Notes under the pieces: generated by a model
What the model saw: only the letters and a program-made list of their open reading frames with translations
Database searches by the model: none
Told to the model about the DNA's origin: nothing
Shown: positions 25,079 to 44,205 of the stretch, piece by piece
How the letters are laid out: each line of letters begins with the position of its first letter
Numbering within the stretch: the stretch's first letter is position 1
Translations under genes and position numbers: made by a program
Assembly: GCF_003018115.1 (NCBI RefSeq)
Contig: NZ_CP027457.1
Length of the DNA stretch: 64,000 nucleotides
Direction: 5' to 3' (one strand)
Origin: Escherichia coli
GTDB taxonomy: Bacteria; Pseudomonadota; Gammaproteobacteria; Enterobacterales; Enterobacteriaceae

Positions 25079-25897
25079 AAGGATAAATGGCGTTCTCTGT
25101 ATTTATTCGCAATTATCTGTAGGACAAATATGGAGAGCTTGATGAGTCAGAGCTAAAACAGCAATTGATTAATAAACATGTTGATTTATTCAAGAAAATG
25201 GATGTATTTTAAATGTTGATTCTTAATATAACCTAATCAATAGATTATCAAGTGAGAGCTACACATTATTGGAGGGGCAGGGGAAAACACCATTTTGGGA
25301 ACAATGCATCAGGTACTCTTACCACTGAAGCAAGATCATCCGGCACCAGGTGGTGGTGCAGTGCTTTGGAAATGGTCCCCTCGGGGGAGTTGTCATTATT
25401 TTCTATGCTATTTGCTTATTATATTCATCAGGTGAATTTAATAAATTCCTAATTTGAAATATCCACTATTAAGCTAGTGTTTAACGACGTTAAGATGGCA
25501 ATGTGCAGATCATGTTATCAGGGTGGGGCGGTAGCGTATATTCCTTATACAAACCATCATTCATTTCAATGATTGTTATTGAATTATTTATTGTTGTGAA
25601 TAAAAAGACATTATGAATATTGGTTTGACTTTGCATATCAGGTTTTTTATTACTCGCTGTAATGTACGAGCCTGTCGTGAATAACGTCGAGAACCCATCC
25701 GTTGCGTTTGTGATTATTTTGTTGACTAAACAGACACCCGTTTCTCTGAAGTAAAATCCCAGACTAAATCATCACATAACCATGACATTTTTCTGATATT
25801 CCCCGGTAACGCCAGATGTCGACTCGCTTATCTCATCCGCCCGACATGTTGTACATGCAATATGTGCGGATTATTATTCATTTTCACGGAGGTTGCT

Positions 25898-28006
25898 ATG
25901 TCAACCGGATTACGTTTCACACTGGAAGTGGACGGCCTGCCACCGGACGCTTTTGCGGTGGTTTCCTTTCATCTCACCCAGTCACTCTCTTCACTCTTTT
26001 CCCTCGATCTCTCCCTGGTCAGCCAGCAGTTTCTCTCCCTTGAATTTGCGCAGGTGCTGGACAAAATGGCCTACCTGACAATATGGCAGGGTGATGATGT
26101 ACAGCGCCGGGTGAAAGGTGTGGTGACCTGGTTTGAACTGGGGGAGAACGACAAAAACCAGATGCTGTACAGCATGAAGGTGCACCCGCCGCTGTGGCGT
26201 GCCGGTCTGCGCCAGAACTTCCGTATCTTCCAGAACGAGGACATCAAAAGCATCCTCGGCACGATATTGCAGGAAAACGGGGTGACCGAGTGGAGTCCGC
26301 TGTTCAGTGAACCGCATCCTTCCCGTGAGTTTTGTGTCCAGTACGGTGAGACTGATTACGATTTCCTGTGCCGGATGGCGGCGGAGGAAGGCATCTTCTT
26401 TTATGAGGAGCATGCTTACAAAAGTACCGACCAGAGCCTGGTGCTGTGCGACACGGTCCGCCATCTGCCCGAATCTTTTGAAATCCCCTGGAACCCGAAC
26501 CCCCGTACCGAGGTGAGCACCCTCTGCATCAGCCAGTTTCGCTACAGCGCACAAATCCGCCCTTCTTCCGTGGTGACCAAAGACTACACCTTTAAACGCC
26601 CCGGCTGGGCAGGACGTTTTGATCAGGAAGGCCAGCACCAGGATTACCAGCGCACGCAGTATGAGGTGTATGACTACCCCGGACGTTTCAAGGGCGCCCA
26701 CGGGCAGAACTTTGCCCGCTGGCAGATGGAGGGCTGGCGAAACAATGCAGAAACCGCGCGGGGAATGAGTCGCTCGCCGGAGATATGGCCGGGACGGCGA
26801 ATTGTGCTGACGGGGCATCCGCAGGCGAACCTGAACCGGGAATGGCAGGTGGTGGCGAGCGATCTTCACGGCGAACAGCCGCAGGCGGTACCGGGACGCA
26901 GGGGTTCAGGCACCACGCTGGATAACCATTTTGCGGTAATACCGGCAGACCGGACATGGCGACCACAGCCGTTGCTGAAACCGCTGGTGGATGGCCCGCA
27001 GAGCGCCGTCGTGACGGGACCGGCAGGCGAGGAAATCTTCTGCGACGAACATGGTCGCGTGCGGGTGAAATTTAACTGGGACCGCTATAACCCGTCAAAC
27101 CAGGACAGTTCATGCTGGATCCGTGTGGCACAGGCGTGGGCAGGCACCGGCTTTGGCAACCTGGCGATACCGCGTGTGGGTCAGGAGGTGATTGTGGACT
27201 TCCTCAACGGCGATCCGGACCAGCCGATTATTATGGGGCGTACCTACCACCAGGAAAACCGCACACCCGGCAGCCTGCCGGGGACGAAGACGCAGATGAC
27301 CATTCGTTCGAAAACCTATAAGGGCAGCGGGTTTAATGAACTGAAGTTTGACGATGCGACAGGGAAAGAACAGGTCTACATCCACGCGCAGAAGAACATG
27401 AACACCGAGGTGCTGAATAACCGCACCACGGATGTGATAAACAACCATGCTGAGACCATTGGCAACAATCAGATGATTGCGGTTACCAACAATCAGATAC
27501 AGACGGTGGGCGTTAACCAGATAGAGACGGTGGGCAGTAACCAGATCATTAACGTGGGTTCTGTTCAGGTGGAAACGATTGGACTTGTTCGTGCGCTGAC
27601 CGTGGGCGTGGCGTACCAGACGACGGTAGGTGGCATTATGAACACTTCGGTGGCTCTGATGCAGTCCTCGCAGATCGGTTTGCATAAATCGTTGAGGGTC
27701 GGGCTGGGTTATGACGTCAAAGTCGGAAATAACGTTACCTTCACCGTTGGTAAAACGAAAAAGGATGATACCGGGCAGACCGCGATTTACTCCGCCGGTG
27801 AGCATCTGGAGCTCTGCTGTGGTAAGGCAAAGCTGGTGCTGACAAAGGACGGTCAAATTTTTCTCAACGGCACAAAAATTCATTTGCAGGGTAAGGAGCA
27901 GGTTAATGGTGACTCACTGTTGATTAACTGGAACTGTGCAGCCTCGAAATCCCCACCGAAGACCCCTGATGAAAAGCAGGATACGCCGGATATGAGAGAG
28001 TACTGA
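25898..28006 (+). CDS. vgrG: Type VI secretion spike protein VgrG (Rhs-element vgr gene)
   Basis: Start at ATG 25898 (MSTGLRFTLEVDG...) after GGAGG; gp27/gp5-like regions and C-terminal Val-Gly repeats (IQTVGVNQIETVGSNQIINVGSVQVETIG). Confidence 0.85.
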   Translation: MSTGLRFTLEVDGLPPDAFAVVSFHLTQSLSSLFSLDLSLVSQQFLSLEFAQVLDKMAYLTIWQGDDVQRRVKGVVTWFELGENDKNQMLYSMKVHPPLWRAGLRQNFRIFQNEDIKSILGTILQENGVTEWSPLFSEPHPSREFCVQYGETDYDFLCRMAAEEGIFFYEEHAYKSTDQSLVLCDTVRHLPESFEIPWNPNPRTEVSTLCISQFRYSAQIRPSSVVTKDYTFKRPGWAGRFDQEGQHQDYQRTQYEVYDYPGRFKGAHGQNFARWQMEGWRNNAETARGMSRSPEIWPGRRIVLTGHPQANLNREWQVVASDLHGEQPQAVPGRRGSGTTLDNHFAVIPADRTWRPQPLLKPLVDGPQSAVVTGPAGEEIFCDEHGRVRVKFNWDRYNPSNQDSSCWIRVAQAWAGTGFGNLAIPRVGQEVIVDFLNGDPDQPIIMGRTYHQENRTPGSLPGTKTQMTIRSKTYKGSGFNELKFDDATGKEQVYIHAQKNMNTEVLNNRTTDVINNHAETIGNNQMIAVTNNQIQTVGVNQIETVGSNQIINVGSVQVETIGLVRALTVGVAYQTTVGGIMNTSVALMQSSQIGLHKSLRVGLGYDVKVGNNVTFTVGKTKKDDTGQTAIYSAGEHLELCCGKAKLVLTKDGQIFLNGTKIHLQGKEQVNGDSLLINWNCAASKSPPKTPDEKQDTPDMREY

Positions 28007-28073: not shown

Positions 28074-31000
28074 ATGAGCGGAAAACCAGCGGCGCGTCAG
28101 GGAGATATGACTCAGTATGGCGGTCCCATTGTCCAGGGTTCGGCAGGTGTAAGAATTGGCGCGCCAACTGGCGTGGCGTGCTCGGTGTGTCCGGGCGGGA
28201 TGACCTCGGGCAACCCGGTGAACCCGCTGCTCGGTGCAAAAGTACAGCCCGGCGAGACGGACCTTGCGCTGCCCGGCCCGCTGCCGTTCATTCTCTCCCG
28301 CACCTACAGCAGCTACCGGACCCGGACGCCTGCACCGGTGGGCGTTTTCGGCCCCGGCTGGAAAGCGCCTTCTGATATCCGCTTACAGCTACGTGATGAC
28401 GGACTGATACTCAACGACAACGGCGGGCGGAGCATTCACTTTGAGCCGCTGCTGCCAGGGGAGGCGGTGTACAGCCGCAGCGAGTCCCTGTGGCTGGTGC
28501 GCGGTGGTAAGGCAGCACAGCCGGACGGCCATACGCTGGCACGGCTGTGGGCGTCGCTGCCGCCGGATATCCGGTTAAGCCCGCATCTTTACCTGGCGAC
28601 CAACAGCGCACAGGGGCCGTGGTGGATACTGGGGTGGTCTGAGCGGGTGCCGGGTGCTGAGGACGTACTGCCAGCGCCGCTGCCGCCGTACCGGGTGCTT
28701 ACCGGGATGGCGGACCGCTTCGGGCGGACGCTGACGTACCGGCGTGACGGACGGTGCCGGGCGTGAGTTCCGTCTGGTGCTGACCACACAGGCGCAGCGG
28801 GCGGAAGAGGCCCGGCAGCAGGCGGTCGTCGCCGGAGCAAAACGACCGGACATTCCTGATTCACTGCCGGAGAGCACAGAGTACGGCCCCGACAGGGGTA
28901 TCCGTCTTTCAGCGGTGTGGCTGATGCACGACCCGGCATACCCGGAGAATCTGCCCGGTGCGCCACTGGCGCGGTACACGTATACGGAAGCCGGTGAACT
29001 GCTGGCGGTATATGACCGCAGCAATACGCAGGTGCGTGCTTTCACGTATGACCCGCAGCACCCGGGCCGGATGGTGGCGCACCGTTACGCGGGAAGGCCG
29101 GAGATGCGCTACCGCTACGACGATACGGGGCGGGTGGTGGAGCAACTGAACCCGGCAGGGTTAAGCTACCGCTATCTTTATGAGCAGGACCGCATCACCG
29201 TCACCGACAGCCTGAACCGGCGTGAGGTGCTGCATACAGAAGGCGGGGCCGGGCTGAAGCGGGTGGTGAAAAAAGAACTGGCGGACGGCAGCGTCACGCG
29301 CAGCGGGTATGACCCGGTGGGGCGGCTTACGGCGCAGACGGACGCGGCGGGACGGCGGACAGAGTACGGTCTGAATGTGGTGTCAGTCGACATCACGGAT
29401 ATCACCACGCCGGACGGGCGGGAGACGAAATTTTACTATAACGACGGGAACCAGTTAACGGCAGTGGTGTACCCGGACGGGCTGGAGAGCAGCCGGGCAT
29501 ATGATGAGCTGGACAGGCTGGTAACGGAGACATCGCGCAGCGGGGAGACAGTACGCTACCGCTATGATGATGCGCACAGTGAATTACCGGCCACAACAAC
29601 AGATGCGACGGGCAGCACCCGGCAGATGACGTGGAGCCGCTACGGTCAGTTGCTGGCGTTCACCGACTGCTCGGGCTACCAGACCCGCTATGAATACGAC
29701 CGCTTCGGCCAGATGACGGCGGTCCACCGCGAGGAAGGCATCAGCCTTTACCGCCGCTATGACAACCGTGGCCGGTTAATCTCGGTGAAAGACGCACAGG
29801 GCCATGAAACGCGGTATGAATACAACGCCGCAGGCGACCTGACTGCCCTCATTACCCCGGACGGCAACCGGAGCGAGACACAGTACGATGCGTGGGGAAA
29901 GGCGGTCAGCACCACGCAGGGCGGGCTGACGCGCAGTATGGAATACGACCTTGCCGGACGCATCACCACGCTGACCAACGAGAACGGCAGCCGGAGTGAG
30001 TTTACCTACGATGCGCTTGACCGGCTGGTACAGCAGCGCGGCTTTGACGGGCGGACGCAACGTTACCACTATGACCTGACCGGAAAACTCACGCAGAGTG
30101 AAGATGAGGGGCTTGTCACCCTCTGGCACTACGACGAATCGGACCGCCTCACTCACCGCACGGTGAACGGCGAACCGGCAGAGCAGTGGCAGTATGATGG
30201 CCACGGCTGGCTGACAGAAATCAGCCACCTGAGCGAAGGCCATCAGGTGGCGGTGCATTACGGTTATGATGATAAGGGCCGCCTGGCCGGGGAGCGCCAG
30301 ACGGTGCATAACCCGGAGACGGGGGAACTGCTGTGGCAGCATGAGACAGAGCACGCATACAACGAACAGGGGCTGGCAAACCGCGTCACGCCGGACGGCC
30401 TGCCGCGGGTGGAGTGGCTGACCTACGGCAGCGGTTATCTTGCGGGGATGAAGCTGGGCGGGACACCTCTGGTCGAGTATACGCGGGACCGCCTGCACCG
30501 GGAAACTGCGCGCAGCTTTGGTAACGGAACGGGCAGTACAGCCGCATATGAACTGACCAGCACTTACACCCCCGCAGGCCGGTTACAGAGCCAGCACCTG
30601 AACAGCCTGATGTATGACCGTGACTACGTGTGGAATGACAACGGCGACCTGGTGCGCATCAGCGGCCCGCGACAGACGCGGGAATACGGCTACAGCGCCA
30701 CGGGCAGGCTGGAGAGCGTGCGCACCCTCGCACCGGACCTGGACATCCGCATCCCGTATGCCACCGACCCGGCGGGAAACCGGCTGCCGGACCCGGAGCT
30801 ACACCCGGACAGCACGCTCACGGCGTGGCCGGATAACCGCATCGCGGAGGATGCGCACTATGTTTACCACTATGATGAATACGGCAGGCTGACGGAGAAG
30901 ACGGACCGCATCCCGGCGGGTGTGATACGGACGGACGACGAGCGGACCCACCACTACCACTACGACAGCCAGCACCGTCTGGTGTTCTACACGCGGATAC

Positions 31001-32250
31001 AGCATGGCGAGCCGCAGGTGGAGAGCCGCTACCTCTGTGACCCGCTGGGACGGCGAATGGCGAAACGGGTATGGCGGCGGGAGCGTGACCTGACAGGATG
31101 GATGTCGCTGTCGCGTAAACCGGAGGTGACGTGGTATGGCTGGGACGGAGACAGGCTGACGACGGTACAGACAGACCAGACCCGTATCCAGACGGTCTAC
31201 CAGCCGGGGAGCTTCACGCCGCTCATCCGTATCGAGACAGAGAACGGCGAACGGGAGAAAATGCAGCGCCGCAGCCTAGCGGAGAAGTTACAGTCGGAAG
31301 GGAGTGAGGACGGTCACGGTGTGGTGTTCCCGGCTGAGCTGGTGAGGATGCTGGACAGGCTGGAGGAAGAAATCCGGGCAGGCCGCGTGAGCAGTGAAAG
31401 CCGGGCGTGGCTTGCGCAGTGCGGGCTGACGGTGGAGCAACTGGCCAGACAGGTGGAGCCGGAATACACACCGGCGCGAAAAGTTCATCTTTATCACTGC
31501 GACCACCGGGGCCTGCCGCTGGCGCTCATCAGCGAAGACGGCAATACGGCGTGGCGCGGGGAGTATGATGAATGGGGCAACCAGCTTAATGAGGAGAACC
31601 CGCATCATGTGTATCAGCCATACCGCCTGCCGGGGCAGCAGTATGATGAGGAGTCGGGGCTGTACTATAACCGCAACCGGTACTATGATCCGTTGCAGGG
31701 GAGGTATATTACCCAGGATCCGATTGGGCCAGTGGGGGGGTGGAATCCCTATAGTTATGTGCTTAATAATCCAGCCCAGTTTATTGACCCAACAGGTTTA
31801 ACTCAAGAGGACAATTGGACCTATGGTGAGGTAGGTAATAGCTGTGTTACGAGTCAACGCGATTTTACTCCCCCGCCCGGACTTGCGGATATGAAAGCCA
31901 GCATTGGCGCTGCCTGCTCAAGAAACAATGCTTCCAGAAACTGCCACCCCGTAGATGGTAGTAATGCTTCTGCACCATCGGATAAAGCCGCATGGGAAAA
32001 TATTCAAAATGCGACAAATGGTAAAGATTTATCTGGTGGTGGAAATATGTTTTGTGTAGGAAATGAGGACTGTGCGGTTGTTCATAGCTGTCGTGAAATA
32101 GTTAATGCTCGACACCCGGCAGGACGAGTGCGTGAACGTGTAACTCCGTTAACAACGTCAGGAACAGCAACGCTCAATGGAACAACAGTTTACTTTTATA
32201 ATGATCCCCGGAATGGTAATTGTCCTGCTCACGAATATATTCCTCAATAA
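28074..32250 (+). pseudogene. rhsE: PAAR-Rhs polymorphic toxin, copy 1, split by a frameshift near 28740-28766 (ORFs 28074..28766 and 28744..32250)
   Basis: N-terminal PAAR-like region, YD-repeat core, DPxGL boundary. Relative to copy 2 about 38 nt (encoding ...[12 protein letters not shown]...) is missing, shifting the frame. Symbol by K-12 position only. Confidence 0.7.
31801..32250 (+). other. Rhs copy 1 C-terminal variable toxin domain (CT1), function unknown
   Basis: About 149 aa following DPTGL at 31786..31800; drop in GC content; Cys-rich; no motif recognised. Confidence 0.6.
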
Positions 32251-32300
32251 AGAAAGGTGGCCAGACTAAGCTCTAGCCACATTTTTTGGAGATCCTTTTC

Positions 32301-32924
32301 ATGAAAAGGTTTTTTATAACATGTTGCGTTATGACATTATTTTTATTTGTTAAATGTAAAGCAGCGTGTGTAACTTCCTTATATGAGGTTCAGCAATCGC
32401 TCTTTACATACATTTATTTGATTAGACAAGACCCTGTTCATTTTGATTCATATATTAAGAATGTGCATAACGAATTAAAAATATTCCATGATATTGATAA
32501 AGCCATGAATATAGCCTCAGATATGGTCAAAATTATTGATATAAAGACCCGTTTATCATTTAATAATGATTTATATATATTACAAGGGGAGCGACAGTAT
32601 GCAATAGTTAAGAGTGAAGGGGAAAGTAGTCAATTAAAATCATCAGCATTTATCATATCTAATTACCCACCATTTAAAAACAAAGTTCTGTTAATTTTAT
32701 CCGCTACTAGTCCCGTTCAGTTGGTTATATTGTCTTTTGATCAATGTCTTAATGTGGAGGTGTTATTTGATTCAATGTCTCCAGTTTTCGCTAAGTATAG
32801 AGAAGATATTAGTGCAACATTACCATTATGGAAGGTTATTTTGACAAAAAATGATATAGAATTATATGAGTACCATAGAACAAATCCATACTCACTTAAC
32901 AAATTATTGAGCATGTCAAAATAA
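32301..32924 (+). CDS. Putative immunity protein for Rhs CT1 (signal peptide/lipoprotein-like)
   Basis: AT-rich ORF directly downstream of rhs; start at ATG 32301 (MKRFFITCCVMTLFLF...) after GGAG; hydrophobic N-terminus with Cys. Confidence 0.6.
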   Translation: MKRFFITCCVMTLFLFVKCKAACVTSLYEVQQSLFTYIYLIRQDPVHFDSYIKNVHNELKIFHDIDKAMNIASDMVKIIDIKTRLSFNNDLYILQGERQYAIVKSEGESSQLKSSAFIISNYPPFKNKVLLILSATSPVQLVILSFDQCLNVEVLFDSMSPVFAKYREDISATLPLWKVILTKNDIELYEYHRTNPYSLNKLLSMSK

Positions 32925-33121
32925 CGGTCAAGTATTCAACGTTGTAATATTATTCCTTTTGCTGAGTGTCTCGAACGGCTAAAGTTGACGTAAAATGCCA
33001 CGTTTTGTGGGCAAACCGAATCGGTTAAAAAGCATGGTCCGGGAAAAGCTAAACATCAGCGCTATCGGTGCCAAATGTGCAGCAGGCCTTTCCAGCCTGA
33101 TTACCAGGGCAGGGCGGGATC

Positions 33122-34410
33122 AGGGAAAGATCATCAGAAGTTCACTTTTTGTACTAAATAATTTGCATTTTATATTTAAAAATTGAGATATTCCTCATTA
33201 CCTGAAGCTGTTTTTTATTGCTTATACATGATCAAATACTCCTTACATAATTAAGGAGAACAAAATGGAACTTAAAAAATTGATGGAACATATTTCTATT
33301 ATCCCTGATTACAGACAAGCCTGGAAAGTGGAACATAAATTATCGGATATTCTACTGTTGACTATTTGTGCCGTTATTTCTGGTGCAGAAAGCTGGGAAG
33401 ATATAGAGGATTTTGGTGAAACACATCTCGATTTTTTGAAGCAATATGGTGATTTTGAAAATGGTATTCCTGTTCACGATACCATTGCCAGAGTTGTATC
33501 CTGTATCAGTCCTGCAAAATTTCACGAGTGCTTTATTAACTGGATGCGTGACTGCCATTCTTCAGATGATAAAGACGTCATTGCAATTGATGGAAAAACG
33601 CTCCGGCACTCTTATGACAAGAGTCGCCGCAGGGGAGCGATTCATGTCATTAGTGCGTTCTCAACAATGCACAGTCTGGTCATCGGACAGATCAGGACGG
33701 ATGAGAAATCTAATGAGATTACAGCTATCCCAGAACTTCTTAACATGCTGGATATTAAAGGAAAAATCATCACAACTGATGCGATGGGTTGCCAGAAAGA
33801 TATTGCAGAGAAGATACAAAAACAGGGAGGTGATTATTTATTCGCGGTAAAAGGAAACCAGGGGCGGCTAAATAAAGCCTTTGAGGAAAAATTTCCGCTG
33901 AAAGAATTAAATAATCCAGAGAATGACAGTTACGCAATTAGTGAAAAGAGTCACGGCAGAGAAGAAATCCGTCTTCATATTGTTTGCGATGTCCCTGATG
34001 AACTTATTGATTTCACGTTTGAATGGAAAGGGCTAAAGAAATTATGCGTGGCAGTCTCCTTTCGGTCCATAATAGCAGAACAAAAGAAAGAGCCAGAAAT
34101 GACGGTCAGATATTATATCAGTTCTGTTGATTTAACCGCAGAGAAGTTCGCCACAGCAATCCGAAACCACTGGCACGTGGAGAATAAGCTGCACTGGCGT
34201 CTGGACGTGGTAATGAATGAAGACGACTGCAAAATAAGAAGAGGAAATGCAGCAGAATTATTTTCAGGGATACGGCACATCGCTATTAATATTTTGACTA
34301 ATGATAAGGTATTCAAGGCAGGGTTAAGACGTAAGATGCGAAAAGCAGCCATGGACAGAAACTATCTGGCGTCAGTCCTTGCGGGGAGCGGGCTTTCGTA
34401 ATCTTGCCCT
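33122..34410 (+). mobile_element. H-repeat (H-rpt, ISAs1-family) element, copy 1
   Basis: About 1.29 kb unit bounded by imperfect inverted repeats AGGGAAAGAT ... ATCTTGCCCT; three near-identical copies in the window. Confidence 0.8.
33265..34401 (+). CDS. ISAs1-family transposase (H repeat-associated protein), copy 1
   Basis: 378-aa [31 protein letters not shown]...; DDE-type transposase family. Confidence 0.85.
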
Positions 34411-35114
34411 GGGGCAACCTGCTTAATGAGGAGAACCCACATCACCTGTATCAGCCATACCGCCTGCCGGGGCAGCAGCATGATGAGGAGTCAGGGCTTT
34501 ATTATAACCGTCACCGGTACTATGACCCGCTACAGGGGAGGTATATCACCCAGGATCCAATCGGGCTAAGAGGTGAATGGAATCTGTATAAATATCCATT
34601 AAACCCTGTTCGGTTTATAGATTCTTTGGGTTTAAAATTCCATGTTAACGGTGATCCAAGTGATTTTAATCAGGCTGTTGAGTATTTAAAACAAGATTCA
34701 CGAATGAAAGAAGCTATAGATTTTTTATCAAGCTCTGAAGAAACCATAAAGATAGAGTATATTGATGAAACCGACGTTAGATTTGACCTGGATAAAATGA
34801 CTATATATTGGAATAGTAAGGCGGCTTTATTTTGTTCAACTGATTTAAAATCGAAATCACAATCACCTGCATTAGGTTTGGGGCATGAGTTTGCTCATGC
34901 GCACTTATATCTTATTGATAAGGATGGTTATATGGGGCTTGTGAGACGTGCGGATGAACAATATAAAAATAAAGAAGAGGCGAGAGTTATCACTTTAATT
35001 GAACAGCATGCGGCGAAAACTTTAGGTGAGTGTACCAGAACAGCATATAATGGAGTGTATTATCGTGTGAATACACCAACGCAGACGGCAACAATAAATG
35101 GCACGCCAGAATAG
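34404..35114 (+). CDS. Orphan Rhs C-terminal fragment with HExxH (zincin-like metallopeptidase) toxin domain (orphan CT-a)
   Basis: Begins at the H-rpt right end with the rhs core 3' end ([18 protein letters not shown]...DPIGL...[13 protein letters not shown]), then a divergent domain containing [10 protein letters not shown]; probably lacks its own start codon. Confidence 0.65.
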
Positions 35115-35575
35115 TGAGATTTTTCATGATGAAATATTTGATGGCTTTATTGTCTCTATTTTCTGCTTCGGTATTGGGGATGGGGCGAGTGAATGATTTA
35201 TGTGGAATAGATAGTGTGAAAACGATAGAAATAATTAATCTTCCAGCATATGTTACCACCTTAACCCCGCTTAGCAAGGAAGGTCTCAAGAGAATATACA
35301 AACATAAAGTGGTGGTGAATGGGGTTAGCGATTTTTATGCTGGTGAGATAATTGATCTATTGCAAATGAAGTATTTCAGGAAGGAGGAGGATAACGATAT
35401 AAGATGGGGGGTTAACATTGTTTCGAATAAAAATAATAAATGTGAAATTTATTTTGATGGTTTTGGTGAATGTGGAAGCGTGAATGGCATTAATGTATGT
35501 TTTGAAAAAAATGAAATGATATATTGGATTAAAAAAGAAATCCCTTTTCTGTCGCAAGAAATAGATGGGCTTTAA
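35114..35575 (+). CDS. Putative secreted immunity protein for orphan CT-a
   Basis: ORF overlapping the toxin stop; likely start at ATG about 35126 (MMKYLMALLSLFSASVLG..., signal peptide); AT-rich. Confidence 0.6.
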   Translation: MRFFMMKYLMALLSLFSASVLGMGRVNDLCGIDSVKTIEIINLPAYVTTLTPLSKEGLKRIYKHKVVVNGVSDFYAGEIIDLLQMKYFRKEEDNDIRWGVNIVSNKNNKCEIYFDGFGECGSVNGINVCFEKNEMIYWIKKEIPFLSQEIDGL

Positions 35576-35651: not shown

Positions 35652-38600
35652 ATGAGCGGAAAACCGGCGGCGCGGCAGGGCGACATGACCCGCAAGGGAC
35701 TGGATATTGTGCAGGGTTCAGCGGGTGTGCTGATAGGTGCGCCGACGGGAGTGGCCTGTTCGGTGTGTCCGGGAGGGATTACCTATGCTAACCCGGTGAA
35801 CCCGGTGCTGGGTGCGAAGGTGCTGCCGGGCGAGACGGACCTTGCGCTGCCCTGCCCGCTGCCGTTTATTCTTTTCCGCGCCTACAGCAGCTACCGGACC
35901 AGAACACCCGCGCCGGTGGGGGTGTTTGGTCCCGGCTGGAAAGCGCCCTTCGATATCCGCTTACAGATACGCGATGAAGGCCTGATACTCAACGACAGCG
36001 GCGGCAGGAGCATTCACTTTGAGCCGCTGTTTCCCGGCGAGATAAGCTACAGCCGCAGCGAGTCACTCTGGCTGGCGCGGGGCGGAGTAGCGGCGCAGCA
36101 CAGTTCGCAGCCGCTAAGCGCGCTCTGGCAGGTGCTGCCGGAAGATGTTCGCCTGAGTCCGCATGTGTACCTGGCGACAAACAGCCTTCAGGGGCCGTGG
36201 TGGATACTCAGCTGGCCGGAGCGGGTGCCGGGGGCGGACGAGGTGCTGCCGCCGGAGCCGCCCGCATACCGGGTGCTGACGGGCGTGGTGGACGGCTTCG
36301 GGCGGACGCTGGCCTTTCACCGGGCAGCGGAGGGTGACGTGGCGGGCGCGGTGACGGGGGTGACGGACGGCGCGGGCCGCCGTTTTCACCTGGTGCTGAC
36401 CACACAGGCGCAGCGGGCGGAAGAGGCCCGTAAACCGCACACCGCTTCGTTATCTTCCCCTGACAGTCCCCGCCCTCTCTCAGCTCCTTCCTTCCCCGAC
36501 ACGCTGCCCGCCGGTACAGAGTACGGTGCCGATAACGGTATCCGGCTGGAGGCGGTATGGCTGACACACGACCCGGCATACCCGGATGAACAGCCGACTG
36601 CGCCGCTGGCGCGCTACACGTACACGGCCGGTGGTGAACTGCGGGCGGTGTATGACCGCAGCGGGACGCAGGTGCGCGGGTTTACTTATGATGCGGAGCA
36701 CGCCGGGCGGATGGTGGCGCACCATTATGCGGGTAGGCCGGAGAGCCGCTACCGGTATGATGATACCGGTCGGGTGACGGAGCAGGTCAACCCGGAGGGG
36801 CTGGACTACCGCTTTGAGTACGGAGAGAGCCGGGTAATCATCACGGACAGCCTGAACCGGCGGGAGGTGCTGTACACGGAAGGCGAGGGTGGCCTGAAGC
36901 GGGTGGTGAAGAAGGAGCATGCCGACGGGAGCATCACCCGCAGCGAGTATGATGAGGCGGGGAGGCTGAAGGCGCAGACGGATGCGGCGGGGCGGCGGAC
37001 GGAGTACCGGCTGCATATGGCGTCTGGAAAGCTGACTTCAGTGGTACTGCCGGACGGCAGGACGGTACGGTATGGTTACAACAACCAGTTGCAACTGACG
37101 TCAGTGACATATCCGGATGGTTTACGCAGCAGCCGGAAATATGACCGTCAGGGCAGGCTGGCGGAAGAGACCTCGCGCAACGGTAACATTACGCGCTGGT
37201 TTTATGATTCTTCCCGCAGTGGCCTGCCCTGTGCGGTGGAAGACGGAACCGGGGTGAGGCGGAGAATAACGCGAAACCGGTACGGTCAGCTTCAGGCGTT
37301 TACGGACTGCTCGGGGTACACGACGCGGTATGAGTATGACCGGTACGGTCAACAAATCGCCGTTCACCGGGAAGAAGGCATCAGCACTTACAGCAGTTAT
37401 AACCCGCGCGGTCAACTGGTCAGTCAGAGGGATGCGCAGGGGCGTGAAACCCGTTATGAGTACAGCGCCGCAGGAGACCTGACAGCAACGGTATCACCGG
37501 ACGGTAAACGCAGCACCATCGCATATGATAAACGCGGGCGTCCGGTGAGTGTGACGGAAGGCGGTCTGACGCGCAGCATGGGGTATGACGCTGCCGGGCG
37601 CATCACCGTGCTGACCAACGAGAACGGCAGCCAGTCCACGTTCCGGTATGACCCGGTTGACAGGCTGACTGAACAGCGCGGTTTTGACGGCCGGACGCAA
37701 CGTTACCACTATGACCTGACCGGAAAACTCACACAGAGTGAAGACGAGGGGCTTATCACCCTCTGGCACTACGATGCGTCGGACCGCATCACGCACCGGA
37801 CGGTGAACGGCGACCCGGCAGAGCAGTGGCAGTATGATGAGCACGGGTGGTTAACCACCCTCAGCCATACCAGTGAAGGCCACCGCGTGTCGGTCCACTA
37901 CGGCTATGACGATAAAGGCCGCCTGACCAGTGAGCGCCAGACGGTGGAGAACCCGGAGACGGAGGAACTGCTGTGGCAGCATGAGACAGAGCACGCATAC
38001 AACGAGCAGGGGCTGGCAAACCGCGTCACGCCGGACAGCCTGCCGCCGGTGGAGTGGCTGACGTATGGCAGCGGCTATCTGGCGGGCATGAAGCTGGGCG
38101 GGACGCCGCTGCTGGAGTTCACGCGCGACCGCCTGCACCGTGAGACGGTGCGCAGCTTCGGCAGCAGGGCAGGCAGTAATGCCGCATATGAACTGACCAG
38201 CACATACACCCCCGCAGGCCAGTTACAGAGTCAGCACCTGAACAGCCTGGTATATGACCGTGACTACGGGTGGAATGACAACGGCGACCTGGTGCGCATC
38301 AGCGGCCCGCGACAGACGCGGGAATACGGCTACAGTGCCACGGGCAGGCTGGAGAGCGTGCGCACCCTCGCACCGGACCTGGACATCCGCATCCCGTATG
38401 CCACGGACCCGGCGGGCAACCGGCTGCCGGACCCGGAGCTGCACCCGGACAGTACCCTCACAGTGTGGCCGGATAACCGCATCGCGAAGGATGCGCACTA
38501 TGTTTACCACTACGATGAATACGGCAGACTGACGGAGAAGACGGACCGCATCCCGGCGGGTGTGATACGGACGGACGACGAGCGGACCCATCACTACCAT

Positions 38601-39845
38601 TACGACAGCCTGCACCGCCTGGTCCATTACATCCGTATCCAATATGAGGAGCCACTGGTGGAGAGCCGCTACCTCTATGATCCGCTGGGCCGCCGGACGG
38701 GTAAACGGGTGTGGCGGCGGGAGCGTGACCTGACGGGGTGGATGTCGCTGTCGCGTAAACCGGAGATGACATGGTACGGCTGGGACGGAGACCGCCTGAC
38801 GACGGTACAGACAGACACCACGCGAATCCAGACGGTCTACCTGCCGGGGAGCTTCACGCCGCTCATCCGCATCGAAACGGAGAACGGCGAACGGGAGAAA
38901 GCGCAGCGTCGCAGTCTGGCGGAGAAGTTACAGTCGGAAGGGAGTGAGGACGGTCACGGTGTGGTGTTCCCGCCTGAACTGGTGATGATGCTGGACAGGC
39001 TGGAGGGAGAGATACGGGCAGACCGCGTGAGCCGTGAAAGTCGCCAGTGGCTGGCGCAGTGCGGACTGACGGTGGAGCAACTGGCCAGACAGGTGGAGCC
39101 GGAATACACACCGGCGCGAAAAGTTCATCTCTATCACTGCGACCACCGTGGCCTGCCGCTGGCGCTCATCAGCGAAGACGGCAATATAGCGTGGAACGCG
39201 GAGTATGATGAGTGGGGCAACATGCTGAACGAGGAGAACCCGCATCACCTGTATCAGCCATACCGCCTTCCGGGTCAGCAGTACGATGAGGAGTCGGGGC
39301 TGTACTATAACCGGAACCGGTACTATGATCCGTTGCAGGGGAGGTATATCACCCAGGACCCGATAGGGCTGATGGGGGGATGGAACCCTTACCTTTATCC
39401 GTTAAATCCTGTCACAAATACTGACCCTCAGGGGTTAGAAGCGATTCTTCCTGGTCCGTTCCCCTTCCCAATTCCATTGCCAAAAAGTCCTGTACAGCAG
39501 GAAGCAGATGCAAATGCAGCAAAAACATTGACAAAATGGTGGAAAAACTTTGGAGATGCCATTAATAATCCGCCACCTCCTGGTAATTGTTCTAATGATT
39601 ATTATGAACATCTGAAAAATCAAAAAGAAGCTATTTGCAACCAAAAAAGAAAGTGTTACCCAACCGATAGTTGTGAAACTATACTTCAGAAAGGTGTGTA
39701 TGGTCTTGCTTGTGTATCAGCAAGGAATAATATTATGAATCAATGTTTTAATGGAGGTGATTTACGGCATCAGCTTGAAAGAGAAACGGTCAGGGGAACT
39801 ATGATGTCATGTACTACATTGGCTGTAATAAAAGGATGTTTATAA
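35652..39845 (+). CDS. Intact PAAR-Rhs polymorphic toxin, copy 2 (1397 aa)
   Basis: AAGGA Shine-Dalgarno; N-terminal PAAR-like region (CSVCPGG), YD repeats, conserved ...PxxxxDPxGL boundary (DPQGL at 39423..39437), variable C-terminus. Confidence 0.9.
39438..39845 (+). other. Rhs copy 2 C-terminal toxin domain (CT2), Cys-rich, function unknown
   Basis: About 135 aa after DPQGL; Pro-rich linker then Cys-rich segment (CSNDYYEHL...[14 protein letters not shown]...CVSARNN...C); AT-rich. Confidence 0.6.
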
Positions 39846-40370
39846 ATGGGAAAAGACGAGATCATAGATTATATTCAGAAAACGTTTTCTGAATATCCAG
39901 ATTATTTGAAAAATGGGGTCGTTGATGAAGACAACATTGCATATTGCCATGACGCTATAAACCTTTTTTCTGGAAAGAGTTGGATTGAATTAATGGCCAG
40001 TGATCTTTACCATTCTGAAGATGCTGTCATGTGTCTCACTAAACCAGCATTCTCATATTATATTGCAGCCTATTTAAAACTTTTTATTGAAAATTATTAC
40101 GAAGCTGATGCTTTAGTGGATACTATTTTAAATATGCTCACTCCTCCTGTTAGGAATGGTATCCCCAGCACTACATGGATAGCAAAAAATCTTGATTGCT
40201 TTAGTCGTAATAAAAGGGTGGCTATTTCTTTTACATTCCAATATTTATGTAATGAATATAATGATCCAAATACTGAAAAGGCGTTAAATATATATTGGGG
40301 ACAGTATCTGAATGAATCATTGCTTATTAAAAATGTACAGAACTCTAAAAATAAATGTAAATCACAGTAA
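39846..40370 (+). CDS. Putative cytoplasmic immunity protein for Rhs CT2
   Basis: 174-aa ORF whose ATG overlaps the rhs stop (TAAATG); no signal peptide; AT-rich. Confidence 0.65.
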   Translation: MGKDEIIDYIQKTFSEYPDYLKNGVVDEDNIAYCHDAINLFSGKSWIELMASDLYHSEDAVMCLTKPAFSYYIAAYLKLFIENYYEADALVDTILNMLTPPVRNGIPSTTWIAKNLDCFSRNKRVAISFTFQYLCNEYNDPNTEKALNIYWGQYLNESLLIKNVQNSKNKCKSQ

Positions 40371-40582: not shown

Positions 40583-41870
40583 AGGGAAAGATCATCAGAA
40601 GTTCACTTTTTGTACTAAATAATTCGCATTTTATGTTTAAAAATTGAGATATTCCTCATTACCTGAAGCTGTTTTTATTGCTTATACATGATCAAATACT
40701 CCTTACATAATTAAGGAGAACAAAATGGAACTTAAAAAACTGATGAAACATATTTCTATTATCCCCGATTACAGACAAGCCAGGAAAGTAGAACATAAAT
40801 TGTCAGATATTCTACTGTTGACTATTTGTGCCGTTATTTCTGGTGCAGAAGGCTGGGAAGATATAGAGGATTTTGGGGAAACACATCTCGATTTTTTGAA
40901 GCAATATGGTGATTTTGAAAATGGCATTCCTGTTCACGATACCATTGCCAGAGTTGTATCCTGTATCAGTCCTGCAAAATTTCACGAGTGCTTTATTAAC
41001 TGGATGCGTGACTGCCATTCTTCAGATGATAAAGACTTCATTGCAATTGATGGAAAAACGCTCCGGCACTCTTATGACAAGAGTCGCCGCAGGGGAGCGA
41101 TTCATGTCATTAGTGCGTTCTCAACAATGCACAGTCTGGTCATCGGACAGATCAAGACGGATGAGAAATCTAATGAGATTACAGCTATCCCAGAACTTCT
41201 TAACATGCTGGATATTAAAGGAAAAATCATCACAACTGATGTGATGGGTTGCCAGAAAGATATTGCAGAGAAGATACAAAAACAGGGAGGTGATTATTTA
41301 TTCGCGGTAAAAGGAAACCAGGGGCGGCTAAATAAAGCCTTTGAGGAAAAATTTCCGCTGAAAGAATTAAATAATCCAGAGCATGACAGTTACGCAATCA
41401 GTGAAAAGAGTCACAGCAGAGAAGAAATCCGTCTTCATATTGTTTGCGATGTCCCTGATGAACTTATTGATTTCACGTTTGAATGGAAAGAGCTGAAGAA
41501 ATTATGCGTGGCAGTCTCCTTTCGGTCAATAATAGCAGAACAAAAGAAAGAGCCAGAAATGACGGTCAGATATTATATCAGTTCTGCTGATTTAACCGCA
41601 GGGAAGTTCGCCACAGCAATCCGAAGCCACTGGCACGTGGAGAATAAGCTGCACTGGCGTCTGGACGTGGTAATGAATGAAGACGACTGCAAAATAAGAA
41701 GAGGAAATGCAGCAGAATTATTTTCAGGGATACGGCACATTGCTATTAATATTTTGACGAATGATAAGGTATTCAAGGCAGGGTTAAGACGTAAGATGCG
41801 AAAAGCAGCCATGGACAGAAACTATCTGGCGTCAGTCCTTGTGGGGAGCGGGCTTTCGTAATCTTGCCCT
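40583..41870 (+). mobile_element. H-repeat (ISAs1-family) element, copy 2
   Basis: Same terminal sequences as copy 1. Confidence 0.8.
40725..41861 (+). CDS. ISAs1-family transposase (H repeat-associated protein), copy 2
   Basis: 378-aa ORF nearly identical to copy 1 with a few substitutions. Confidence 0.85.
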
Positions 41871-42486
41871 GCCAGGGCAGCAACACGATGAGGAGTCGGG
41901 GCTGTATTATAACCGTCACCGGTACTACGATCCGTTGCAGGGGTGGTATATCATCCAGGACCCGATTGGGCTGAAGGGGGGATGGAATCTGTACCAATAT
42001 CCGCTGAATCCAGTGCAACACGTTGATCCATTAGGGCTTAGTACTATGATAATAGGTAACGGCCCCGTTCCTGATAATCCTTTTGGGCATGCTGCGGCGG
42101 CAAATCGATATGGATTAATGAGTTCGGGAACTGGGGATGAGATGGGAGCCTCTGTCTCTGATTATTTTAAAAAGATGCAACCCCGCAGAGATACCTGGAT
42201 TTGGATAATAGATACAACAGATGAAGAAGAACAATGTATGATGAATAAGGCAATAGACCTTAATAAAAAACTAAAAACTATTAACCTCGGGCCTCTTCCT
42301 GTTTTAAATAATTGTTTTAGCCGAACGAACATGATTTTTGAGGCGTGCGGGTTTAACAACCCCTCTATGAATACAAATGCGCCTATAAGCCTACAAGTGC
42401 TCGGTGAGCTTTATGGATATCAAAGATATATTATGCCTAAAGGTCCTTTCACTGGATTCCCATTTGAATTTCAAGAGGTAAAGTAA
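41839..42486 (+). CDS. Orphan Rhs C-terminal fragment with unknown toxin domain (orphan CT-b)
   Basis: From the H-rpt right end: [35 protein letters not shown]...[13 protein letters not shown], then a divergent about 149-aa domain ([10 protein letters not shown]..., two Cys). Confidence 0.6.
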
Positions 42487-42885
42487 ATGGAAATGCTTGG
42501 GAAGATATTATTGATAATTATTTCCATGATAATTATATCTTGTGATTATTATAATGCTGGCATGGACTATCAAGATAATATAGCCCTCGAGCAAGTCGTA
42601 ACATGGGATTCTGATAATATATTCACACCTAATATCTTTGAACATAATGGAAGATGTTTTATGAAGAAAAATGAAACATGGATGTTATTAAATGGAGATG
42701 CAACACCAAACATTAGAACAATGAGCAATAAGAAAATAGAATGCCTGGAGAAGAGTGAAGTAGAATGGGCTAGTAGGGTTTGCGACAGTATCACAGACAA
42801 GGAAAGGGAAAATCTGAAGGCATTAATATGTAGCAAACCAGCTAAATCAGTTAATACAGGCAAAAGACCAGCGTTAGGATATTGA
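42487..42885 (+). CDS. Putative lipoprotein immunity protein for orphan CT-b
   Basis: 132-aa ORF abutting the toxin stop; N-terminal hydrophobic segment ending in a lipobox-like IISC. Confidence 0.6.
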   Translation: MEMLGKILLIIISMIIISCDYYNAGMDYQDNIALEQVVTWDSDNIFTPNIFEHNGRCFMKKNETWMLLNGDATPNIRTMSNKKIECLEKSEVEWASRVCDSITDKERENLKALICSKPAKSVNTGKRPALGY

Positions 42886-42917
42886 AACCGGCACTGCACT
42901 CTATCACTATTACAATC

Positions 42918-44205
42918 AGGGAAAGATCATCAGAAGTTCACTCTTTGTACTAAATAATTCGCATTTTATGTTTAAAAATTGAGATATTCCTCATTACCTG
43001 AAGCTGTTTTTATTGCTTATACATGATCAAATACTCCTTACATAATTAAGGAGAACAAAATGGAACTTAAAAAACTGATGGAACATATTTCTATTATCCC
43101 CGATTACAGACAAGCCTGGAAAGTAGAACATAAATTGTCAGATATTCTACTGTTGACTATTTGTGCCGTCATTTCTGGTGCAGAGGGTTGGGAAGATATA
43201 GAGGATTTTGGTGAAACACATCTCGATTTTTTGAAGCAATATGGTGATTTTGAAAATGGTATTCCTGTTCACGATACCATTGCCAGAGTTGTATCCTGTA
43301 TCAGTCCTGCAAAATTTCACGAGTGCTTTATTAACTGGATGCGTGACTGCCATTCTTCAGATGATAAAGACGTCATTGCAATTGATGGAAAAACGCTCCG
43401 GCACTCTTATGACAAGAGTCGCCGCAGGGGAGCGATTCATGTCATTAGTGCGTTCTCAACAATGCACAGTCTGGTCATCGGACAGATCAAGACGGATGAG
43501 AAATCTAATGAGATTACAGCTATCCCAGAACTTCTTAACATGCTGGATATTAAAGGAAAAATCATCACAACTGATGCGATGGGTTGCCAGAAAGATATTG
43601 CAGAGAAGATACAAAAACAGGGAGGTGATTATTTATTCGCGGTAAAAGGAAACCAGGGGCGGCTAAATAAAGCCTTTGAGGAAAAATTTCCGCTGAAAGA
43701 ATTAAATAATCCAGAGCATGACAGTTACGCAATCAGTGAAAAGAGTCACAGCAGAGAAGAAATCCGTCTTCATATTGTTTGCGATGTCCCTGATGAACTT
43801 ATTGATTTCACGTTTGAATGGAAAGGGCTGAAGAAATTATGCGTGGCAGTCTCCTTTCGGTCCATAATAGCAGAACAAAAGAAAGAGCCAAAAATGACGG
43901 TCAGATATTATATCAGTTCTGCTGATTTAACCGCAGAGAAGTTCGCCACAGCAATCCGAAACCACTGGCACGTGGAGAATAAGCTGCACTGGCGTCTGGA
44001 CGTGGTAGTGAATGAAGACGACTGCAAAATAAGAAGAGGAAATGCAGCAGAATTATTTTCAGGGATACGGCACATTGCTATTAATATTTTGACGAATGAT
44101 AAGGTATTCAAGGCAGGGTTAAGACGTAAGATGCGAAAAGCAGCCATGGACAGAAACTATCTGGCGTCAGTCCTTGCGGGGAGCGGGCTTTCGTAATCTT
44201 GCCCT
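42918..44205 (+). mobile_element. H-repeat (ISAs1-family) element, copy 3
   Basis: Same terminal sequences; right flank is the native pptA upstream region. Confidence 0.8.
43060..44196 (+). CDS. ydcC: ISAs1-family transposase (H repeat-associated protein), copy 3
   Basis: 378-aa ORF; symbol by position next to pptA as in K-12. Confidence 0.8.

Follow-up and report, generated by a model that had tools for sequence, protein, structure and literature searches.

A candidate SleB-like Rhs toxin domain and its putative periplasmic immunity protein at an Escherichia coli vgrG-rhs locus

Organization and occurrence of the rhs1 module

The window analysed here is the whole of a 64,000-nucleotide stretch of DNA from Escherichia coli (contig NZ_CP027457.1 of assembly GCF_003018115.1), and the module described lies within it at the yncG/yncH-vgrG-rhs locus of E. 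coli (Table 1). It consists of the 3' end of rhs1 and the gene that follows. The reading frame spanning 28744-32250 runs through a PxxxxDPxGL demarcation of the YD core at 31771-31800, and then continues as a variable C-terminal domain (CT1) of exactly 149 codons (31801-32247) and a stop codon, with seven cysteine residues and the C-terminus CPAHEYIPQ; the original prediction of a 149-residue tail after DPTGL with several cysteines is thus correct in its details. The AT-rich reading frame reported downstream is also present and follows CT1 after a gap of 50 nt, with a product that begins MKRFFITCCVMTLFLFVKCKAACV. In the NCBI annotation of identical DNA the start of this immunity gene is placed ten codons later, and Salmonella orthologues keep the longer N-terminus.

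Linkage of the module to a type VI secretion system (T6SS) is evident both from the vgrG gene immediately upstream and from the PAAR-like N-terminus of rhs1. The GC content falls in steps from the rhs core through CT1 to the immunity ORF, as is usual for a displaced Rhs tip. To the right of the module, the ISEc1 transposase gene separates it from the next orphan rhs CT/immunity pair.

Table 1. Features of the rhs1 module and its surroundings; positions are those of the window, and a slash within a sequence marks the predicted cleavage site.
Feature	Coordinates	Strand	Basis
vgrG (T6SS spike), 714 aa, directly 5' of rhs1	25862..28006	+	ORF; strain 2824 equivalent annotated 'type VI secretion system Vgr family protein'
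rhs1 5' fragment, PAAR-like N-terminus, severed by frameshift	28074..28766	+	ORF; alignment with intact allele (L004)
rhs1 YD-repeat core, 62% GC, ends at demarcation motif (DPTGL = 31786-31800)	28744..31800	+	ORF, sequence
CT1 toxin domain (predicted), 149 aa + stop, 46% GC	31801..32250	+	ORF, family alignment, AF2 model
Hairpin and U-tract between CT1 stop and immunity ribosome-binding site; weak terminator/attenuator-like	32257..32287	+	dG -14.4 kcal/mol, z -1.76; alone not significant
Ribosome-binding site GGAG, 9 nt ahead of ATG 32301	32288..32291	+	sequence
Predicted Sec signal peptide of immunity protein, MKRFFITCCVMTLFLFVKCKA/A, without lipobox	32301..32363	+	rule-based reading
Immunity ORF, 207 aa, 29.5% GC, motif LLILSATSPVQLVILSFDQ..VLFDS	32301..32924	+	ORF, homologue comparison
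IS1 transposase fragment	32966..33116	+	coordinates transferred from annotation of identical strain F9792 region (L001)
ISEc1 (ISAs1-family, 'H-repeat') transposase	33265..34401	+	ORF, annotation

The full-length rhs reading frame is not intact in this genome. Compared with strain 2824, where the allele is intact, rhs1 lacks 38 bp between two ACCGGCGTGA repeats (junction 28737/28738) and the frame is shifted, so that rhs1 is disrupted and the immunity ORF is left whole, a possibility that had been raised earlier. Because rhs1 is broken, the module is a remnant here: rhs1 is a pseudogene, and the toxin is probably not delivered.

Of 5426 complete E. coli genomes, 11 contain the segment with CT1 and the immunity gene, always as a complete, chromosomal copy with at least 99.6% identity. 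It had been suggested that the immunity gene may persist alone as protection against kin, but an immunity gene lacking CT1 occurs in none of the 5426 genomes, both being present in each of the 11 carriers. Five complete genomes have the 1124-bp segment with 100% identity, and in strain 2824, in which full-length rhs is intact, the identity is 99.8%. The carrier protein is annotated as a full 'RHS element core protein' in at least three of the 11 genomes (2824, TB06051, and YZMc3-1). Searches with tblastn gave no match to CT1 on plasmids or phages.

Relatives of CT1 and of the immunity protein

When 1.84 billion cluster representatives were searched exhaustively with HMMER, about 75 proved to be related to CT1, 67 of them at E<1e-10. 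The nearest is the tip of a Salmonella orphan Rhs protein (89% identical), and the remainder are 35-55% identical and mainly metagenomic, such that the domain is found in Enterobacteria (E. coli and Salmonella) and in many uncultured bacteria. Its position is always at the C-terminus or close by. Motif rules place it at an Rhs/YD C-terminus in 26 of the approximately 75 relatives and with a DUF4157-type HExxH domain in 17, two of which were confirmed as PF13699 (eCIS_core); under similarly simple rules, several relatives have an N-terminal Sec or lipoprotein signal together with an extra C-terminal domain. This spread over Rhs, DUF4157/eCIS_core, and Sec/lipoprotein carriers marks CT1 as a typical polymorphic toxin domain. 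No PAAR fusion is present among the 75. One relative (P0073) looked by eye like a phage MuF-type fusion. A word-indexed protein search returned close enterobacterial copies only, with ten matches even when a profile was used, and a scan of genome contigs found two loci only, in metagenome-assembled genomes of Acidobacteriota and Planctomycetota.

CT1, the immunity ORF, and the 62-member CT1 alignment have no meaningful match in Pfam, NCBIfam, PADLOC, PHROGs, or PDB sequences, which agrees with the earlier view that CT1 has no recognizable motif, and no known nuclease family was matched. When the 62 aligned members of the CT1 family were searched against Pfam, no family was matched at E<=10, Hydrolase_2 included. 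That the two reading frames are more than chance is indicated by the CT1 relatives at E<1e-10 and by paired downstream relatives both in Salmonella and in unrelated metagenomic Rhs loci. CT1 and its immunity protein represent families not yet described, although a toxin tip on an Rhs protein with a matching immunity gene is as such an ordinary kind of element.

The proposed pairing of toxin and immunity gene at the Rhs terminus is supported, and the linkage is conserved. An immunity homologue lies 3' of the toxin gene in all seven other Rhs-linked loci that were examined, two from Salmonella (L002 and L003) and five from unrelated metagenomes (L005, L006, L009, L010, and L023), and the Salmonella gene downstream of the nearest CT1 relative is 68% identical to the window immunity ORF. 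No immunity homologue was found downstream of two DUF4157-linked relatives (L007 and L022) or of one Sec-exported stand-alone relative. Members of the immunity family share the motif L-L-I-L-S-x-x-S-P-x-x-x-x-I ... Y/F-D-S, with S134, P138, D157, and S158 invariant. A structural model of the immunity protein (pLDDT 74) gave no informative match in the fold search.

Signal peptides and lipoboxes were scored by simple rules. The N-terminus of the immunity protein (MKR-FFITCCVMTLFLFV-KCKA/ACV) has a charged n-region, a hydrophobic h-region, and a small-x-small site, and so has the features of a Sec signal peptide cleaved by signal peptidase I (SPase I). The cleavage site is conserved, with CKA/A in the window and ...ECKA/EC in two Salmonella orthologues (P0008 and P0009), and a similar signal architecture is seen in these two and in L005, L006, L010, and L023. 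In all of the seven loci but L009, the homologue has a signal peptide in which a hydrophobic core lies between a charged n-region and an AXA-like site; the L009 homologue as called has none. A lipobox ([LVI][ASTVI][GAS]C, in strict or permissive form) is absent from the window ORF and from P0008, P0009, L005, and L010; the L006 homologue carries a permissive one (IGGC) and might be a lipoprotein. The candidate cysteine is preceded by K-A-A in the window ORF and by K-A-E in the Salmonella orthologues, i.e. by residues charged at -3 and in Salmonella also at -1, and a lysine at -3 (with the additional glutamate at -1) is incompatible with a lipobox. The original prediction of an envelope location for the immunity protein is upheld, but its description as lipoprotein-like is not, as the window ORF and its Salmonella orthologues have an SPase I-type site in place of a lipobox. 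From these N-terminal features we infer export of the immunity protein to the periplasm, where it would be soluble rather than lipid-anchored. An exported immunity protein makes it most likely that the toxin acts in the periplasm, as had been proposed.

Conserved residues and predicted fold of CT1

In the alignment of 62 CT1 family sequences (A1), G11 and S36 are invariant, and E12, W67, D78, C41, C50, C87, C93, and the F134-Y135 pair are at least 90% conserved; E12, which is the glutamate of a YGE motif, is present in 61 of the 62. The cysteines behave as pairs. Residues 41 and 50 are both cysteine in 59 sequences, neither is in three, and in none is there only one of them; 87 and 93 are both present in 61 of 62; and for 99 and 143 the corresponding counts are 50 with both, four with one, and eight with neither. 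A further pair that is missing from the window CT1 shows similar coupling. Given that the cysteines are gained and lost as pairs, we predict that CT1 contains three disulfides, C41-C50 (31915/31942), C87-C93 (32053/32071), and C99-C143 (32089/32221), and that Cys17 (31843) is an unpaired, lineage-specific free cysteine. The predicted disulfides argue for function in an oxidising compartment. A catalytic Cys/His arrangement or Ser/Asp/His triad was also considered and rejected, as H97 is present in just 37 of the 62 sequences and the cysteines co-vary as pairs.

An AlphaFold2 model of CT1 computed with A1 as input (pLDDT 92, pTM 0.87) places a small beta region after three helices. The original prediction had named no activity for CT1. 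In a Foldseek search of AFDB50 the only significant match is the E. coli protein itself; the 49 non-self matches are weak (E 0.16 to 8.5), and about 18 of them carry an annotation as SleB/CwlJ-like cell wall hydrolase. By fold the model matches SleB best, although weakly, and only about 85 of 151 residues align. The first helix carries W-T-Y-G-E in CT1 and A-V-Y-G-E in SleB (4f55 sequence), and the glutamate of this YGE motif is the sole invariant glutamate across 11 SleB-like sequences (SleB and ten phage SleB-like endolysins). The chain numbering of 4f55 puts both E157 of Bacillus cereus SleB and E151 of Bacillus anthracis SleB, which we take to be the catalytic residues, on this same glutamate. 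More than a thousand phages that infect Gram-negative hosts use SleB-like domains as endolysins.

An hhalign comparison of the CT1 family with the 11-sequence SleB-like alignment is collinear over 99 columns and brings the YGE motifs together, but its score of 14.6 (E 0.13) is not above shuffled controls, being reached by four of 60 column-shuffled alignments. With scores lying within the range of the shuffled controls, the hhalign matches to SleB alone and to the SleB-like alignment were dropped as evidence for homology. Because the profile score is no better than that of the shuffles, we regard the assignment of CT1 as a SleB-like enzyme that cleaves peptidoglycan glycan strands as moderately supported, and not as a demonstrated membership.

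Proposed function and comparison with known systems

We favor a combined reading, which we judge to be somewhat probable, in which CT1 is the toxin tip of a VgrG-linked T6SS Rhs protein and acts in the periplasm as a SleB-like glycan-strand cleaver, with the next ORF encoding its cognate immunity protein. The shell formed by an Rhs protein encloses the CT, which is set free after the DPxGL motif and delivered by injection into an adjacent Gram-negative cell. An intact, VgrG-loaded Rhs protein would in this manner carry CT1 into the neighbouring cell, where the small globular domain with its three predicted disulfides would fold, or stay oxidised, in the periplasm. There it would most likely, on moderate support, cut the glycan strands of peptidoglycan as do SleB/CwlJ-type lytic transglycosylases, with the YGE glutamate (codon 31828-31830) as the candidate general acid, and the predicted outcome is loss of shape and lysis of the target cell. 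Self-protection would come from the immunity protein, which would bind and block CT1 in the periplasm of the producing cell and its kin.

The part of this reading that is most open to challenge is the chemistry. CT1 may be periplasmic and yet no glycan-strand cleaver, its likeness to SleB being coincidental or too remote and its target being peptide cross-links, lipid II, the membrane, or a periplasmic protein; we consider this possible but doubtful. In its favor, both the fold similarity and the profile similarity to SleB are below significance and the structural alignment is partial, the invariant S36 and the near-invariant D78 and W67 have no assigned role, and the cysteine-rich beta half has no verifiable SleB counterpart. 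For the SleB-like assignment there is the best fold match and the shared YGE glutamate in helix 1. It is also conceivable, and in our view unlikely, that CT1 founds an undescribed and widespread superfamily of disulfide-rich toxins with Rhs, eCIS-associated DUF4157, and Sec/lipoprotein carriers, in which the SleB likeness is superficial, the envelope chemistry is new, and the immunity proteins of the Rhs loci have a new periplasmic fold.

The other challenges concern location. The hydrophobic, cysteine-containing N-terminus of the immunity protein and the IGGC sequence of its distant homologue in L006 are what might be expected of an outer- or inner-membrane lipoprotein, but strict and permissive lipobox patterns alike are absent from the window ORF, from the two Salmonella orthologues, and from L005 and L010, and the conserved cysteine is preceded by K-A-A or K-A-E and by the conserved small-x-small CKA site, so that we consider lipid anchoring very unlikely. 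We give still less credence to a cytoplasm-acting CT1 (a nuclease, deaminase, ADP-ribosyltransferase, or the like) followed by an unrelated ORF or one coding for a membrane protein, and regard it as extremely improbable. Nucleases are common among E. coli Rhs CTs and CT1 carries no annotation that speaks against such an activity; however, CT1 has no nuclease or other Pfam or NCBIfam match, its three cysteine pairs co-vary as expected of disulfides, the toxin and exported immunity homologues show strict linkage in Rhs loci, and some members of the CT1 family are themselves Sec- or lipoprotein-exported.

The favored reading, a periplasmic SleB-like Rhs toxin with an exported immunity partner, can be compared with several known systems. 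The C-termini of enterobacterial Rhs proteins are reportedly polymorphic toxins, in work that is said to go back to Koskiniemi et al. in 2013 and Zhang et al. in 2012. The window has the same arrangement as these systems, with a YD core, the PxxxxDPxGL motif, a low-GC CT with its immunity gene, and orphan arrays separated by ISEc1. The enterobacterial Rhs CTs that have been characterised are mostly cytoplasm-acting nucleases, whereas CT1 is proposed to act in the periplasm, and neither it nor its immunity protein belongs to a family held in Pfam, NCBIfam, PADLOC, or PHROGs. The DUF4157/eCIS_core toxins (PF13699) are connected with CT1 through the 17 relatives that have this domain at their N-terminus; the DUF4157-linked loci examined are without an immunity gene, whereas the window protein is Rhs-linked.

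Periplasmic action on glycan strands has precedents among T6SS effectors. Tge1 (Tse3) and its relatives are periplasm-acting, glycan-cleaving effectors neutralised by a periplasmic immunity protein (Tgi), and the logic is the same as that proposed for CT1 and its immunity protein; the folds differ, and the muramidase fold of Tge1-3 is not shared by the CT1 model. The SleB/CwlJ lytic transglycosylases and the SleB-like phage endolysins (Hydrolase_2) resemble CT1 in the Y-x-E of helix 1 and in having three helices followed by a beta region, and their substrate is peptidoglycan. They differ from CT1 in that no profile similarity is detected and in lacking its predicted three disulfides and cysteine-rich beta part, and they are housekeeping or lysis enzymes, whereas CT1 would be a delivered toxin with an immunity partner.

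Of the known systems the nearest is the T6EC3/T6IC3 pair of Acinetobacter rudis CIP 110305, a T6SS effector with its immunity protein, in which the effector has partial structural similarity to SleB (4F55/4FET) and is without sequence annotation (Mol Syst Biol 2024; PMC11148199). T6EC3 proved toxic when it was directed to the periplasm; an immunity protein that naturally carries a signal peptide neutralises it, and the substitution E108Q, at the glutamate that matches the catalytic glutamate of SleB, inactivates it (PMC11148199). It is a PAAR-fused protein of 290 aa whose sole homologue in the authors' set is a Vibrio VgrG fusion (PMC11148199). Compared by description only, T6EC3 and CT1 have in common a T6SS association, a partial SleB likeness, and a signal peptide on the immunity protein (predicted in the case of the window), and differ in that T6EC3 is fused to PAAR and CT1 to Rhs. 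The analysis provides an unannotated toxin domain with a testable function and a named candidate catalytic residue, and defines a previously unannotated immunity family. If confirmed, CT1 would be a single toxin domain common to Rhs/T6SS carriers, eCIS-associated DUF4157 carriers, and Sec-exported lipoproteins, and, alongside T6EC3, a second and sequence-distinct SleB-like effector that cleaves the cell wall.

Disruption of rhs1 and expression of the immunity gene

Relative to the intact allele of E. coli strain 2824, the vgrG-linked gene rhs1 has lost 38 bp (junction 28737/28738) and is thereby inactivated; 10-bp direct repeats (ACCGGCGTGA) flank the deletion, and the loss looks like a slipped-strand or microhomology event. 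On identical DNA, RefSeq starts the downstream immunity gene at Met11 (32331; 197 aa) rather than at 32301, and this shorter form loses the charged n-region of the predicted signal peptide. The ribosome binding site belongs to the upstream ATG at 32301, and this start agrees with the Salmonella orthologues. The hairpin in the spacer between the toxin domain (CT1) and the immunity gene has an A-tract upstream and a folding energy that departs from shuffled sequences by only z = -1.76; in the transcript it could have an attenuating or a stabilising role.

Additional rhs modules

Features of the rhs region
Feature	Coordinates	Location or description
Hairpin GUGGCCAGA/UCUAGCCAC, then U6	32257-32287	Between CT1 stop and immunity ribosome binding site
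Orphan rhs tip and downstream ORF	34404-35575	After ISEc1
Second rhs gene and following ORF	35652-40370	rhs gene intact; 1397 aa
Two more ISEc1 (H-repeat) transposase copies	40725-44196	On either side of orphan rhs tip
Orphan rhs tip	41839-42486	Between ISEc1 copies

The C-terminal region of the first orphan tip contains an HEFAH motif and weakly matches Peptidase_M91 (E 0.063). Because the ORF downstream (35114-35575) begins with a signal-peptide-like N-terminus, the two may constitute a second periplasm-related pair. The C-terminal region of the second rhs gene matches Pfam Ntox16 (E 2e-12), and the 174-aa ORF that follows is without a signal peptide. Downstream of the other orphan tip, a small ORF (42487-42885) has an N-terminus ending in a lipobox-like ...IIISC.

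CT1 relatives in other carriers

All Rhs-linked CT1 relatives examined have an adjoining immunity homologue, whereas the two DUF4157/eCIS_core-linked loci (L007 and L022) do not, which suggests that the eCIS-associated versions differ in self-protection logic or in targets. In a Planctomycetota MAG (L008, 2758-5165) an insertion seems to have interrupted the CT1 homologue, which now lies in two ORFs separated by ~1.5 kb. The family also includes predicted lipoproteins (LAGC, ISAC, LLGC; among cluster representatives P0050, P0056, P0058 and P0059) with an extra C-terminal domain of ~100 aa. These recall the membrane-bound lytic transglycosylases, and they may be housekeeping rather than toxic proteins.
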